DNA from: a virus
Reading direction: 5' to 3' (one strand)
Virus genome (UHGV): UHGV-0146776
DNA length: 11,376 bases
Shown: piece after piece, positions 2,504 to 11,370 of the stretch
Numbering within the stretch: position 1 is the stretch's first letter
How the letters are laid out: every line of letters begins with the position of its first letter
Program-made: the position numbers and the translations under genes
Notes under the pieces: generated by a model
Databases searched by the model: none
The model's input: only the letters and a program-made list of their open reading frames with translations
What the model was told of the DNA's origin: nothing

Positions 2504-3709
2504 TTACGCCGCTGCAATCTTCAGCAGTTTGATGGCCTGCGAATCGACCAGCATGCCGCCGGTGCGCTTGGTGGTATAAAAACCGACAAACGGTTTATTG
2601 GTGTACGGATCACGCAGAATGCGGGTACCGATACGGTCAACGATGGTGTAACCCCGTTTGAAGTTACCAAATGCAATAGCTTTCGCATCAGCGGCGATAT
2701 CCGGCATCTGTTCGTTTTCAGCGATACCGTAACCCGCCAGAGAGGACGGTTGCCCCAGCTCCAGCCCCGGACGCCACAGATAGTTACCCTCGGTGTCTTT
2801 CAGCAGACGGATGGCAAACAGGCTGTTGTTGTTCATCATGAACTTCGCGCCAGTGCGGTGTGCCTTACGCAGCGTGTAAATCAGTTTGATAATGGCGTCT
2901 GCGGTCACCGTCGTCGCTTCACCGGATACAATATGCTGAAGTTTACCGAACGCACGAACCTTATCGGTTTCATCGGTGGATTCATACACCAGGAACCCTT
3001 TTGGCTTCTTAGTGCCATCACCGGTGGTAAAGGCAATTTCTTCCTGTTCGGCAAATTCGGTCGCCAGCTCGCTGTTGATCCAGGCCTCCACGTTGAAGAA
3101 GGCATCATCCAGCATTTTCTGAGTGGCCTGCGGGTTACCGTAGATTTCCCCCATGAGAGGTTCAATCAGCTCCAGTCTGGAGGTGGCAGTCTGGGATCGC
3201 GTATCCGTTTCCCCCACCCATCCGGAAGCCGTACCGCCCAGATTCACCAGTTTTTTGTAGTCGGAACCGCCAACGGTGATCACCGTGGCTTCCTGACGCA
3301 TCACCACTTCATCTTTAAGCAGGTTGAGAATGTTGCGATCCAGCGCTTCCGGCACGGCATAGCCACCGTCTTCATCGGTGCCCACCTGCAATGCCTTACG
3401 CTCCAGATCGCGCAGACCGTCTTCACGGCCTTTACGCAGGAAGCACACAAACGCCTCTTTATGCTCGGTGGCCAGTTTATTTTGCGCACCACCTGCCGGA
3501 CGTTTCAGCTCAAGCAACTCTTTTTCAAGATCGCTTTTGAGGTTTTCCAGCTCGCTGAGTTTCCCGTTCAGGGTTTCCACCTGCCCGGCAAGTTTGCCTT
3601 TTTCCTGCTCAATCGCATCCACGCGCTTGTCGTTCTTTGCTTTGAAGTCGTCAAACTTCTGCTGCAGCTCCTGCGCGACCTGTTCCACATCTTTAATATC
3701 AACCGCCAT
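2504..3709 (-). CDS. Major capsid protein, HK97 family, with N-terminal delta (scaffolding) domain
   Basis: 401 aa. The N-terminal ~100 aa is a heptad-rich coiled coil (EQVAQELQQKFDDFKAKNDKRVDAIEQEKGKLAGQVETLNGKLSELENLKSDLEKELLELK), followed by a ~300-aa body typical of HK97-fold capsid proteins. It sits directly downstream of the prohead protease with no separate scaffold gene. Confidence 0.9.
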   Translation of the reverse strand: MAVDIKDVEQVAQELQQKFDDFKAKNDKRVDAIEQEKGKLAGQVETLNGKLSELENLKSDLEKELLELKRPAGGAQNKLATEHKEAFVCFLRKGREDGLRDLERKALQVGTDEDGGYAVPEALDRNILNLLKDEVVMRQEATVITVGGSDYKKLVNLGGTASGWVGETDTRSQTATSRLELIEPLMGEIYGNPQATQKMLDDAFFNVEAWINSELATEFAEQEEIAFTTGDGTKKPKGFLVYESTDETDKVRAFGKLQHIVSGEATTVTADAIIKLIYTLRKAHRTGAKFMMNNNSLFAIRLLKDTEGNYLWRPGLELGQPSSLAGYGIAENEQMPDIAADAKAIAFGNFKRGYTIVDRIGTRILRDPYTNKPFVGFYTTKRTGGMLVDSQAIKLLKIAAA

Positions 3710-3723
3710 CGTATTTCTCCTGA

Positions 3724-8537: not shown

Positions 8538-9092
8538 TTATCTTGACTCAAATACAAATCTAGAAGAGATGAGCTTATCAAGCATTTTCATAAGTAAATC
8601 CTTACTCTCACCACCATTTATATATTTATTAAAGTTAGACTCGAACTCATGCCAAACTTTTTCTAACTCAGTATTATCAAATAAGTGCTCTGTCGCAAAC
8701 CATGAAGACTGGCAACAATCGAAAATACTCAAAAGTTCATCAAATCTTTTAACATTCTCTTCTCCCAACTCAATTTGCTGACTAATAAGATCTACATCTT
8801 TAAATAGCCATTTCGCAATAACTTGCTCTCGTTCATCATTGAGTTGCTCGGGGTCAATATTGACAGGCATAAATAATAGAGCTGTCTTTAATTTCTTTAA
8901 TGCATTCCTAAAATCTATTTTTACTTTTGTTTTCTCTTGTTCCCGCCACGTAAACAATGCCTTGAACGCCAAAAACAAAGTAACAATAGTAGCTCCAGCA
9001 CTCACCCAAGATGCAATCATTGCCCAACAAGCCCACTCAGCAGCAGCACGGTTTGCTACAAGTGTCTCATATGCAATATAATTTTCGTTCAT
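8538..9092 (-). CDS. Hypothetical membrane-anchored protein (184 aa) in AT-rich island; candidate moron / exclusion or defence protein
   Basis: Long ORF in DNA that is about one-third G+C on sampled lines, where chance ORFs are rare. ATG at 9092 preceded by GAGGT. One N-terminal hydrophobic segment (about residues 16-47), then KALFTWREQEKTKVK, then an acidic helix-prone ~135-aa domain. No family-level motif recognised. Confidence 0.75.
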   Translation of the reverse strand: MNENYIAYETLVANRAAAEWACWAMIASWVSAGATIVTLFLAFKALFTWREQEKTKVKIDFRNALKKLKTALLFMPVNIDPEQLNDEREQVIAKWLFKDVDLISQQIELGEENVKRFDELLSIFDCCQSSWFATEHLFDNTELEKVWHEFESNFNKYINGGESKDLLMKMLDKLISSRFVFESR

Positions 9093-9725: not shown

Positions 9726-10336
9726 ACCAGCAGCGCCGCCCGCGCCTTGTTGTATCGGACCTTACGATCCTCAATACCGTTCAAACCGCCGTTAATGATG
9801 CGCGTAACACGGTTAATATCGGCACCGTAGATCATGCAACCTTTAGAGGTGTAGAACCATGCAGCTGAGCGCGCCGCCTGTAGTTCCTGTTCCAGTTGTT
9901 CAGGTGAAGTCACCAGATCTAACTTCAGCGCCGCGCCACAGATGCGATAATTATGGAGGCCAGTGATTTGAATTAATCCTCTACCACGATATTTCCAGCC
10001 ATCACCTGGTGCTTTGTTACCCAGTCGGTTGCTATACACCAGATTGGCAATAGCATCCTGACGAGCTGCATGTCCGGATGTTCTGCCAAGGGCATCAGCC
10101 TGCTGCTGTGTGATCCTCTTTCCGAACGTCGCCACAAGCGCAGATGGTGTGTAGTTAAGATTTTCAACTACGGCGCTAAACCCCATCGACTCATGGCCTG
10201 CCTGAGCGATAAACATTGCCTGATCCGCTGGTGCTGTAATGCCGAATTCCTTCATCGCCGCATCAATGTGCGGAAACCAGCGCGCAGCCAGCCCGGCGCT
10301 AATACCAGCCGCCTTTTGAAATAATTGTTGGTTCAT
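9722..10336 (-). CDS. Endolysin, glycoside hydrolase family 19 (chitinase-like lysozyme)
   Basis: 204 aa. Motif KYRGRGLIQITGLHNY is characteristic of GH19 catalytic domains. ATG at 10336 overlaps the upstream stop (TAATG) with GAGG SD. Flanked by membrane proteins upstream and spanins downstream. Confidence 0.85.
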   Translation of the reverse strand: MNQQLFQKAAGISAGLAARWFPHIDAAMKEFGITAPADQAMFIAQAGHESMGFSAVVENLNYTPSALVATFGKRITQQQADALGRTSGHAARQDAIANLVYSNRLGNKAPGDGWKYRGRGLIQITGLHNYRICGAALKLDLVTSPEQLEQELQAARSAAWFYTSKGCMIYGADINRVTRIINGGLNGIEDRKVRYNKARAALLV

Positions 10337-10617
10337 TAGTGCCTCAGATGATCAACCAGACGTGCAACGTTGCCTCTGACGGCCACCAGCACGGAAAGAA
10401 AAATAGTATTCGCCACGATAATGGGCCATGAGGAATGGGGATAAATCCCACAGAGATAGGCCAATGGAACAGCACTGTATGTAACAGTAATCAGCCAGGC
10501 TAAACGTGAAACCCAAGGACGATGCCGCGAATCACCACGACGATAAAACATCAGAGTAATAACAACACAAGCACATAACAGCGCATTTATAGTTGCTGTC
10601 GGGTCATTTAGCTCCAC
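10336..10617 (-). CDS. Small 3-TM membrane protein in lysis cassette (putative holin or antiholin partner)
   Basis: 93 aa with GTG start at 10617 preceded by GGAGGT at about 4 nt, overlapping the last 14 nt of the upstream holin gene. Three hydrophobic segments. Stop overlaps the endolysin start. Confidence 0.55.
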   Translation of the reverse strand: MELNDPTATINALLCACVVITLMFYRRGDSRHRPWVSRLAWLITVTYSAVPLAYLCGIYPHSSWPIIVANTIFLSVLVAVRGNVARLVDHLRH

Positions 10618-10990
10618 CTGAACCTCCCCGGCGCGTTATGAGCGCCACCAGCGAGCCGATATCCTGATTATTCAGGAATGTCAGGATTTTAACGGCTAAA
10701 GCAGAGACGATTACGGCACCAATAGCATCCAGAGGTTTATCACTGTATCCGGTCAAGTTCGCCAGCTTGGAGCCAACCAACCCAGAGCATAGGATCCCGG
10801 CAATATATGACACGATAAAATATGCCAGTCGGCGTGATGCACTCAGATCTGCTGCTGTTGCTATGTAGAATACAGCCCCTGCAAATGCGCCAAATACAAC
10901 GCCGTAATCAGTTCCGGTCAGCAGTCCATAAACACTGGCACCCGTCAGGGCACCACCAGCCAGCCCAGTACCGGAAATCGGATCGGACAT
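10604..10990 (-). CDS. Putative holin (Gly/Ala-rich multi-TM membrane protein)
   Basis: 128 aa with ATG at 10990 preceded by AGAGGGG. Multiple hydrophobic Gly/Ala-rich helices and a charged C-terminal tail (RRGGSGGAK). First gene of the lysis cassette upstream of the endolysin. Family not recognised with certainty. Confidence 0.6.
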   Translation of the reverse strand: MSDPISGTGLAGGALTGASVYGLLTGTDYGVVFGAFAGAVFYIATAADLSASRRLAYFIVSYIAGILCSGLVGSKLANLTGYSDKPLDAIGAVIVSALAVKILTFLNNQDIGSLVALITRRGGSGGAK

Positions 10991-11068
10991 TTAGCCCCTC
11001 TTAATTGCTGTTGGTCCTCTCAGATATGAGGGGAAGGGATCTTAATGACAGTCTGTTTATTATTTCAG

Positions 11069-11326
11069 TCAAACACTACCCTGTTGATGATTTCTCAGAA
11101 GCGAACTTGACTCCCAAGGGAAACTCAACTTTCCGTTAAAACCACCAGCAGACATTCGTTCAATTTCCACAGAAATATCACTGAGCCGTTCTTCAAGCTC
11201 TGCTTTTTCTTTTACCAGACGGTTATAGCGGCTTAGATGAAGCTTTTGCTGCTCCAGCCAGTCTTCAAGCTGTTCAACAGTCATACCAGGGTTAAAAAAA
11301 TATGGCTGCTGCTTTTCGCCCTGCAT
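11069..11326 (-). CDS. Hypothetical 85-aa protein, first gene after the tR'-like terminator
   Basis: Track ORF starts with TTG at 11347 inside the terminator. The ATG at 11326..11324 is preceded by GGAGGT at 5 nt. Central segment is charged and coiled-coil-like (EQLEDWLEQQKLHLSRYNRLVKEKAELEERLSDISVEIERM). No family recognised. Confidence 0.6.
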   Translation of the reverse strand: MQGEKQQPYFFNPGMTVEQLEDWLEQQKLHLSRYNRLVKEKAELEERLSDISVEIERMSAGGFNGKLSFPWESSSLLRNHQQGSV

Positions 11327-11340
11327 TATTGACCTCCAGA

Positions 11341-11370
11341 AAAGCAAAAACCCCGCCGAAGCGAGGTTTG
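11341..11370 (-). terminator. Rho-independent terminator (minus-strand sense), candidate tR'-like late terminator
   Basis: Minus-strand RNA reads CCUCGC-UUCG-GCGGGG: a 6-bp stem with one G-U pair (extendable to 9 bp by flanking A/U), a UUCG tetraloop, then UUUUUGCUUUU. In the plus-strand sense the same stem has a C-A mismatch and no U-tract. It lies a few nt upstream of the SD of the 85-aa gene. Confidence 0.55.

Follow-up and report, generated by a model that had tools for sequence, protein, structure and literature searches.

An orphaned small gene ahead of the holin gene in virus genome UHGV-0146776 is one half of a widespread convergent prophage cassette

Two unrelated systems have been described in which a prophage protein made in the lysogen is paired with an antisense-encoded antidote made in the lytic cycle. 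In the first, the prophage defence protein Tha is inhibited by Ith, a small protein whose gene overlaps that of Tha in antisense (Rostol et al. 2024, PMC11087260). Tha and Ith are expressed from opposing transcripts, the balance of which flips upon induction, forming a "noncontiguous operon" whose lysogenic and lytic modes of expression are mutually exclusive; an infecting phage can likewise evade Tha by means of Ith (PMC11087260). In phage phi80, TaiEcA is made in the lysogen from a gene antisense to the Q-dependent late operon and is neutralized by AtiEcA, a protein of 76 amino acids encoded within that operon (PMC11364771). Cognate Tai and Ati proteins bind each other and expression of Q lowers the TaiEcA level (He et al. 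2024, PMC11364771); phi80 lacking ati acquires insertion sequence (IS) insertions in tai (PMC11364771). The present analysis concerns an 85-codon open reading frame (ORF) at positions 11069-11326, minus strand, of an 11,376-nucleotide stretch of the virus genome UHGV-0146776 (the window), immediately ahead of the holin gene. We find that this gene is the orphaned small half of a widespread two-gene prophage cassette and the first ORF of a Q-dependent late transcript. The role we favor for it, tentatively, is that of a lytic-cycle antagonist of its lost partner.

The cassette became apparent when ORFs were mapped around diverged homologues of the small ORF and 87 related loci (identified below by L numbers) were fetched. 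Nearly all of the diverged homologues are faced by a convergent gene of about 145-180 codons on the opposite strand, whose 3' end overlaps the last ~70-95 nucleotides of the small ORF. This partner belongs to NCBIfam family NF033230, "ECs1072 family phage-associated protein" (a hypothetical equivalog), and to phrog_5286 (unknown function). In the presence/absence comparison across related prophages that an earlier note on this DNA had proposed, a trace of the partner accompanies every small-ORF homologue (87/87 loci), at full length in 32 and as a remnant or truncated gene in 55. The convergent overlap is also found in E. coli locus L087, in loci L089, L090 and L091 and in Shigella phage SfIV. 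The partner protein is all-helical, most full-length members having ~145-157 residues, and its alignment has three invariant columns (R40, H72 and H73) and two nearly invariant ones (R55 and R87); it matches nothing in Pfam or PADLOC. In the literature, searched by gene name (ECs1072 and sb50), by NCBIfam and PHROG identifier and for "noncontiguous operon", we found no functional study of these genes and no paper describing the pairing, overlap or role of NF033230/phrog_5286 and phrog_3501, the family of the small ORF. Both families are already catalogued but uncharacterized; the two-gene cassette is defined in this work.

An intact version of the cassette is carried by Salmonella phage ST64B (L002, NC_004313), where a 144-codon ECs1072-family gene lies opposite sb50 (locus positions 3281-3715, plus strand; record positions ~36438-36869). 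This gene is unannotated in both the GenBank and RefSeq records, while sb50, as annotated (119 amino acids), appears to be 5'-extended across the terminator relative to the conserved 85-codon start. The small ORF itself is sometimes left unannotated by PGAP. In relatives such as L002, L058 and L059, the overlap contains a 10-nucleotide palindrome, TGGGATCCCA, that is read as W-D-P by both genes on their opposite strands; its counterpart in the window (~11108-11117) is the degraded TGGGAGTCAA.

In the window, only a wreck of the partner remains. A pseudogene fragment of the ECs1072-family gene occupies positions 11040-11139 on the plus strand, its last 71 nucleotides overlapping the 3' end of the 85-codon gene. 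It corresponds to residues ~83-143 of the 144-residue partner, with an internal deletion of 22 codons, and has neither start codon, promoter nor the N-terminal ~60%. Comparison of the plus-strand ORF at 11005-11139 with the partner alignment gave an hhalign probability of 98.3% (E 1.5e-14) over residues 83-143, with a 22-residue gap. Aligned at the DNA level with ST64B and Salmonella phage 118970_sal3, the window shows a recombination breakpoint at 11039/11040, where partner homology stops and the holin leader begins (…cattaaga|tcccttcccctc…). The breakpoint is shared with phages of the 118970_sal3 and ST64B-DT104 type, in agreement with the published ST64B-DT104 variant, whose DT104 "SB5051" primer matches this holin (PMC3901673). 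A second junction, at 11068/11069, directly follows the stop codon of the 85-codon gene and marks the loss of 66 nucleotides between CTGAAA direct repeats; L003 keeps these 66 nucleotides. Finally, a degenerate relic of the partner's terminator lies at 11183-11215 (plus strand), antisense to codons 38-48 (KEKAELEERL). It is broken by a GCC GCC to GCA GAG change (A43E) that marks this clade, and the segment forms no local hairpin in the window (-6.5 kcal/mol). Read together, these features indicate that the holin cassette took the place of the partner's promoter and first ~60% by recombination, after which 66 nucleotides were lost and the embedded terminator decayed. From the breakpoint, the deletion and the remnant alignment, it follows that the 85-codon gene is an orphan, and that its 3' end and the spacer beyond it are what is left of the partner. 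The spacer, which the earlier note had put at about 78 nucleotides, measures exactly 78 up to the holin ATG at 10990. In phages of the SKA5, 118970_sal3 and ST64B-DT104 types, the "intergenic" DNA that precedes the holin gene should accordingly be annotated as a pseudogene fragment, and ST64B credited with its unannotated 144-codon gene (see above).

The signals around the 85-codon gene tie its expression to the late operon. It starts with ATG at 11326-11324 and ends with TGA at 11071-11069. The Shine-Dalgarno sequence GGAGGT (11332-11337, minus strand), read from the sequence and conserved in homologous loci, is separated from the ATG by 5 nucleotides (CAATA) and abuts an intrinsic, tR'-like terminator (11338-11369, minus strand) composed of a hairpin (11369-11348; 9 pairs in the stem, 5 of them G-C) and a U tract (11347-11338) whose tail, TTGCTTTTCT, runs into the Shine-Dalgarno. 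The earlier note had described such an ORF, with GGAGGT 5 nucleotides before its start and a terminator just upstream, leaving the strand unspecified; the description is correct for the minus strand. A TTG start at 11347, which would give a 92-codon ORF, was rejected: it is not conserved, falls within the U tract and lacks a Shine-Dalgarno. The hairpin followed by GTTTTTGCTTTTCTGGAGG recurs, with variation in the stem, downstream of several different Q genes, and in most loci a hairpin and U tract abut the small-ORF Shine-Dalgarno whatever Q gene lies upstream. Nucleotide similarity between the window and ST64B stops at this hairpin (query 167-470). In Escherichia phage SKA5, 99.4% identical to the window over this stretch, Q (PF03589) ends 150 nucleotides upstream of the small-ORF ATG, placing the antiterminator gene and pR' just beyond the end of the window, and a promoter-like TTGCAT-17-TAGGAT sequence precedes the terminator by ~55 nucleotides. 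With Q and a promoter-like site upstream, the hairpin is well placed to be tR'. Since there is no room for a promoter between terminator and Shine-Dalgarno, the small ORF can be transcribed only by polymerase that has come from the lytic promoter through the terminator. Nor is the gene followed by a terminator of its own; lacking both elements, it is not a moron in the strict sense of an autonomous promoter-gene-terminator unit. The suggestion that it occupies a moron slot stands; the idea of a free-standing moron gives way to that of one half of a convergent pair. In Rfam, the window end and SKA5 had sub-threshold matches only (STnc180, istR and rsmX/RsmY), which were dismissed as chance, being driven by the terminator hairpin.

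The protein itself is small, charged and helical with no transmembrane segment, as first described. The AlphaFold2 model consists of one helix (residues 17-60) flanked by disordered ends, with a mean predicted local distance difference test score (pLDDT) of 77.6. In the alignment, a conserved N-terminal motif, QQPYFFNPGMTxEQLEDWLxQQK, is followed by a long amphipathic helix and by a variable, poorly constrained tail. The profile and structure searches suggested at the outset recovered relatives and nothing with a name. The only family match is phrog_3501 ("unknown function"), which is full length (E 1.2e-54; residues 1-84 against profile positions 1-84 of 85), so the absence of a recognized family noted earlier holds. 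Scans of Pfam, NCBIfam and PADLOC yielded no family, only noise (crAss001_48, E 0.063; acylphosphatase, E 0.15). A homologue search of 5.8 billion proteins returned 59 clusters, all from Enterobacterales and all "hypothetical"; a profile search of 1.84 billion representatives returned just 32 proteins, all small relatives including a few more distant ones, and provided no link to any named family. Foldseek found no match for the model in the PDB, and a PDB sequence search matched designed coiled coils only, hits that were discarded as reflecting composition.

That the ORF is a genuine protein gene, rather than a chance reading frame, is indicated by its pattern of substitution. The ratio of non-synonymous to synonymous substitution rates (dN/dS; Nei-Gojobori, pairwise) is 0.14-0.5 between diverged homologues, and the corresponding polymorphism ratio (pN/pS) within two clades (codons 1-56/60) is 0.15 (44 synonymous and 26 non-synonymous changes) and 0.11 (8 and 3), both significantly below neutral. 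The tail, at pN/pS ~0.9, behaves otherwise.

In relatives with an intact cassette, the partner looks like an autonomous transcription unit and so fits the definition of a moron. This appearance rests on two elements. Upstream of the gene, an element of the extended -10 type, TGnTAnnnT, is conserved 41-49 nucleotides before the ATG in 13 of 16 loci. Downstream, the partner's own intrinsic terminator, a hairpin and T run, is embedded antisense inside small-ORF codons ~38-48 (the "EKAALEERL" stretch). Partner-bearing loci fold AGCCGC..loop..GCGGCT followed by TTTTTC, with local hairpins of -10 to -17 kcal/mol over a 54-nucleotide segment. The stem is kept through lineage changes (AGCCGTTCC/GGCGGCT in ST64B, AGCCGCT/AGCGGCT in L087), and the terminator is present in most of the partner-bearing loci examined, the exceptions being L071, L088, L089 and L091. 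In L002 (3177-3196, minus strand), a second terminator-like hairpin on the late strand separates the antisense partner from the holin gene; L063 and L006 have equivalents upstream of the partner promoter. Intact cassettes are thus bracketed by late-strand terminators; the second hairpin is absent from the window because of the deletion.

The cassette is found at two kinds of site. At the first, the pair sits behind Q genes of three Pfam families, PF03589 (SKA5), PF06323 (E. coli L087) and PF06530 (L090), and precedes at least four holin/endolysin types (Phage_holin_8, P22 gp13-like, Phage_holin_2 and other cassettes). At the second, in Shigella phage SfIV and in L089, an ECs1072-like gene converges on an ORF of 68-78 codons with no lysis gene nearby, and the small ORF follows the terminator of a cI-like repressor gene and a TTGACA-16/17-(C)ATAAT promoter with operator-like repeats. 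The small ORF is in this way placed directly after a lytic promoter, be it pR' and the terminator behind Q or a pL-like promoter beside a cI-like repressor gene. These two sites are the classical places of exclusion and defence morons, namely the rexAB/sieB position and the Q-S position. In SfIV (L088, NC_022749), the small ORF is an unannotated frame of 68 codons (2754-2960, minus strand; MHKTEPKIVAPGYTNEEIYEWM...) converging on gp36, and the pL-like promoter, with repeated ATGTACCCA operator-like motifs, adjoins the cI-like repressor gene gp37. The gp36 protein is homologous to the partner (hhalign probability 97.7%). Direct comparison of the SfIV-type small ORF with that of the window gives a weak match (hhalign E 4e-4, probability 35%); P0085, a close relative of the SfIV-type ORF, was found by the window-ORF profile at E 5e-4 (the whole 1.84-billion library), and the two types of pair have the same synteny. 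The SfIV-type small ORF appears as a PGAP "hypothetical protein" in many E. coli genomes.

A screen of 5,426 complete E. coli genomes gave matches to the SfIV-type cassette over at least 80% of the query in 402; the orphan form is carried by 107, annotated in every case as "hypothetical protein". The L087-type variant is rare, as these searches found it in one genome only. Other versions are present in Salmonella (ST64B), Klebsiella, Citrobacter, Enterobacter and more distant Enterobacterales. The pair is common, yet its gene families are known only as "hypothetical".

How does this arrangement compare with the systems described above? As with Tha and Ith of S. aureus phages 80alpha and phiNM2, a larger prophage gene and a small gene overlap in antisense in the relatives of the window. 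An architecture like that of TaiEcA and AtiEcA, in which the larger gene lies antisense within a late operon, predicted to depend on Q, that contains the small one, is present in ST64B, L087 and L090, though in convergent instead of divergent geometry; in the window the larger gene is destroyed. An IS-disrupted partner gene in L067 provides a natural parallel to the IS insertions in tai of phi80 lacking ati: an IS-type transposase ORF (307 codons), +359 to +1282 after the small ORF, interrupts the ECs1072-family gene and leaves only its last ~35 codons. The SfIV-type cassette also recalls lambda rexAB and P22 sieB-esc, as it occupies the slot between a cI-like repressor gene and the leftward early genes. 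In the sieB/esc case, the phage encodes an escape function for its own exclusion gene. The rexAB and sieB genes are co-directional with cI or stand alone, and esc is an internal in-frame product, whereas the small gene here is separate and convergent; we know of no sequence relationship between rexAB or sieB and the cassette.

By analogy with Tha/Ith and Tai/Ati, we propose that the small ORF may encode a lytic-cycle antagonist of an accessory or defence partner expressed in the lysogen, orphaned in the present case, a reading to which we give somewhat less than an even chance. In the lysogen, constitutive expression would supply the ECs1072-family protein as an accessory factor, probably one acting in anti-phage defence or exclusion. 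On the switch to lytic growth, transcription from pR' or pL would run antisense through the partner gene, and the same transcript would yield the small helical protein, which would bind and neutralize the partner. The phage would thereby be spared harm to its own development by its accessory protein. The orphan small protein might then be either a leftover drifting to loss or an escape factor acting in trans against ECs1072-family proteins of resident prophages, the latter having a rationale in the help that Ith gives an incoming phage against defence. The proposed antagonism fits the location of the cassette in the two classical defence slots, the IS-disrupted partner of L067 and the protein-level selection (pN/pS 0.11-0.15) in the region of the ORF not reached by the partner transcript. 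A further fitting observation, weak as evidence, comes from untreated (not deliberately induced) cultures of O157 Sakai, in which ECs1072 is among the genes with a significant change in expression (PMC2241611).

A more specific version of this proposal, which we regard as possible but on the doubtful side, is that the cassette constitutes a new prophage defence and self-immunity system non-homologous to the known ones, the orphan being kept as an anti-defence gene that would permit growth on the many lysogens of E. coli and Salmonella in which the cassette is intact. Such a system would be distinctively wired, with a convergent 3' overlap, the defence gene's terminator inside the antidote coding sequence, and the antidote as the first ORF behind pR'/tR' or pL. 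Should the antagonist reading prove true, the cassette would represent a third unrelated case of a lysogen-expressed prophage protein with an antisense-encoded lytic-cycle antidote, and the first whose antidote is under the direct control of late-gene or pL-like lytic promoters; it would be a non-homologous version of the known arrangement of prophage defence and antisense self-antidote, with its own wiring. Natural experiments would already be on hand in the deletion derivatives, the IS-disrupted partner and the frameshifted orphans.

Several observations weigh against an antagonist role or set the cassette apart from the known systems. The cassette proteins show no homology to TaiEcA or AtiEcA (hhalign probabilities 0.4% and 0.5%), and neither the small protein nor the partner matches PADLOC models. 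Tha belongs to the HEPN RNases, but the invariant columns of the partner alignment contain no conserved R-x4-6-H (HEPN) motif; moreover, Tha/Ith comes from another bacterial phylum, with no sequence relationship expected, and ith is transcribed constitutively from a promoter of its own within the cI operon, unlike the small gene here, which has no promoter and depends on pR'/Q or a pL-like promoter. TaiEcA, an inhibitor of tail assembly, is longer (204 amino acids against ~145-157 for most full-length ECs1072-family proteins). In phi80, tai and ati are divergent, overlap at their 5' ends and lie after Rz and before the packaging genes; the cassette genes converge with their 3' ends overlapping, and their place is either the interval from tR' to the holin gene or next to a cI-like repressor gene. 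The co-occurrence of small ORF and partner would also be explained by linkage alone, and part of the conservation of the ORF, in the EKAALEERL stretch, may reflect the partner's terminator and not protein function.

The alternative that survives best is that the ORF of the window is a functionless relic, translated from late messenger RNA without consequence and surviving because the partner was deleted recently. We give this a substantial chance, though one short of even, and the orphan clade offers evidence on both sides. The 53 partner-less loci comprise 18 haplotypes with 6 synonymous, 12 non-synonymous and 2 nonsense changes. A T7 homopolymer at codons 9-11 (YFF; 11294-11300, minus strand) is a frameshift site in relatives, having become T6 in L053-L055 and T8 in L056. 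The earlier note had held that an ORF absent or degenerate in near-identical prophages without phenotype would speak against an accessory gene; this is borne out in part, as frameshift and nonsense copies do occur (L053-L056), alongside 49 intact copies of 53. Changes in the tail (codons 61-85) mostly alter the protein, with 1 synonymous against 7 non-synonymous and 2 stops, and the embedded partner terminator has decayed (see above), all as expected of a relic. Codons 1-60, at 5 synonymous and 5 non-synonymous changes (~0.26 by hand calculation, marginally below neutral), give only a hint of continuing constraint. Small as these numbers are, they point to a freely drifting tail and to decay of some copies, with some constraint perhaps persisting in the core. 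There has been little time for loss of the ORF, given that the clade's proteins are 92-100% identical and that the window and 118970_sal3 lineages differ at few of the 258 nucleotides. On the other side stand the large majority of intact copies, the retention of a strong Shine-Dalgarno and of the first position in the late operon, and the usefulness in trans that Ith-like proteins have for an infecting phage (PMC11087260).

A less probable but still serious rival is that the two genes form a functional pair unconnected with defence, the partner being a regulator, or a toxin-like or addiction factor, and the small protein its co-factor, adaptor, activator or antitoxin-like counterpart; an orphan copy would then have no target. 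It is the lack of Tai/Ati homology, of a HEPN motif and of a PADLOC match that lends this explanation its weight, as known defence models are left unmatched. The strict co-occurrence and overlap of the genes are equally in keeping with it, as are the partner's weak resemblance to a DnaA domain IV-like helix-turn-helix and the position of the cassette exactly at the promoters that decide lytic expression. We nevertheless judge it unlikely: both genomic sites are those of exclusion and defence morons, the overlapping antisense prophage pairs proven by experiment are defence/anti-defence pairs, and the convergent layout is unlike that of type II toxin-antitoxin operons. A type II toxin-antitoxin pair as such was rejected, the genes being convergent instead of co-directional and matching no toxin or antitoxin family in Pfam, NCBIfam or PADLOC.

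The earlier note had proposed a lysis-timing role or lysogenic conversion, with the gene expressed with or ahead of the late genes from the slot that Stx (Shiga toxin) genes occupy in Stx phages. The slot argues for such roles: the region between tR' and the holin gene is indeed an accessory site, and relatives carry tRNA genes there, as Stx phages do. The G+C content of the ORF (43.8%, against 51.4% for the window) is also below that of its neighbors. However, the gene travels with the ECs1072 gene and not with any holin type, and its SfIV/L089 copies lie beside a cI-like repressor gene, far from lysis genes. The protein has no transmembrane segment, signal sequence or secreted- or membrane-type fold. 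Without a promoter of its own, the small ORF could not be expressed in the lysogen as a conversion gene. We therefore consider a lysis-timing or holin-modulating protein, or an Stx-like conversion moron, improbable; a holin, antiholin or lysis regulator was specifically rejected, the predicted single soluble helix preceding unrelated holin types and also adjoining a cI-like repressor gene. That the frame is conserved solely through opposite-strand elements, with no functional protein made, is least probable of all, for although the last ~24 codons overlap the partner coding sequence, codons 38-48 encode its terminator and the tail evolves at pN/pS ~0.9, the most conserved motif falls in codons 1-37, beyond that terminator, synonymous change is abundant (see above), the start codon and strong Shine-Dalgarno are conserved, and the frame is kept in homologues only 30-50% identical.

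The tRNA genes flank the cassette between Q and the holin gene at 941-1250 in L066, at 3741-3895 in L075 and at 2864-2939 in L073 and L080; they comprise Met-CAT, Thr-TGT, Gly-TCC, Arg-TCT and one odd tRNA. None is present in the window.

The late operon fills the window as one long minus-strand unit. The 85-codon ORF is followed by two holin genes, a GH19-type endolysin gene, Rz with an Rz1-like LysC, a gene for a 184-residue protein and then genes for an HNH endonuclease, the small and large terminase subunits, portal, protease, major capsid and head-tail proteins, all on the minus strand. The first holin gene, next downstream of the 85-codon ORF, lies at 10604-10990 (minus strand; Phage_holin_8, PF16931, E 1.2e-34). 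The two holin-family genes are in tandem (10336-10990, minus strand) with a 14-nucleotide overlap, Phage_holin_8 (128 amino acids) preceding Phage_holin_3_7 (93 amino acids), and are possibly a holin/antiholin pair. The 184-codon ORF (8538-9092, minus strand), between Rz/Rz1 and the HNH/terminase genes, stands out by its G+C content of 35.5% against 51.4% for the window. Its product has no Pfam match, gives only a noise-level hit in PADLOC (CARF_TM, E 0.021), matches phrog_6169 (unknown function) and is hydrophobic in an N-terminal segment. The slot it occupies, upstream of the packaging module, is the one in which phi80 carries tai and ati, which makes the gene a candidate for an accessory or defence function.

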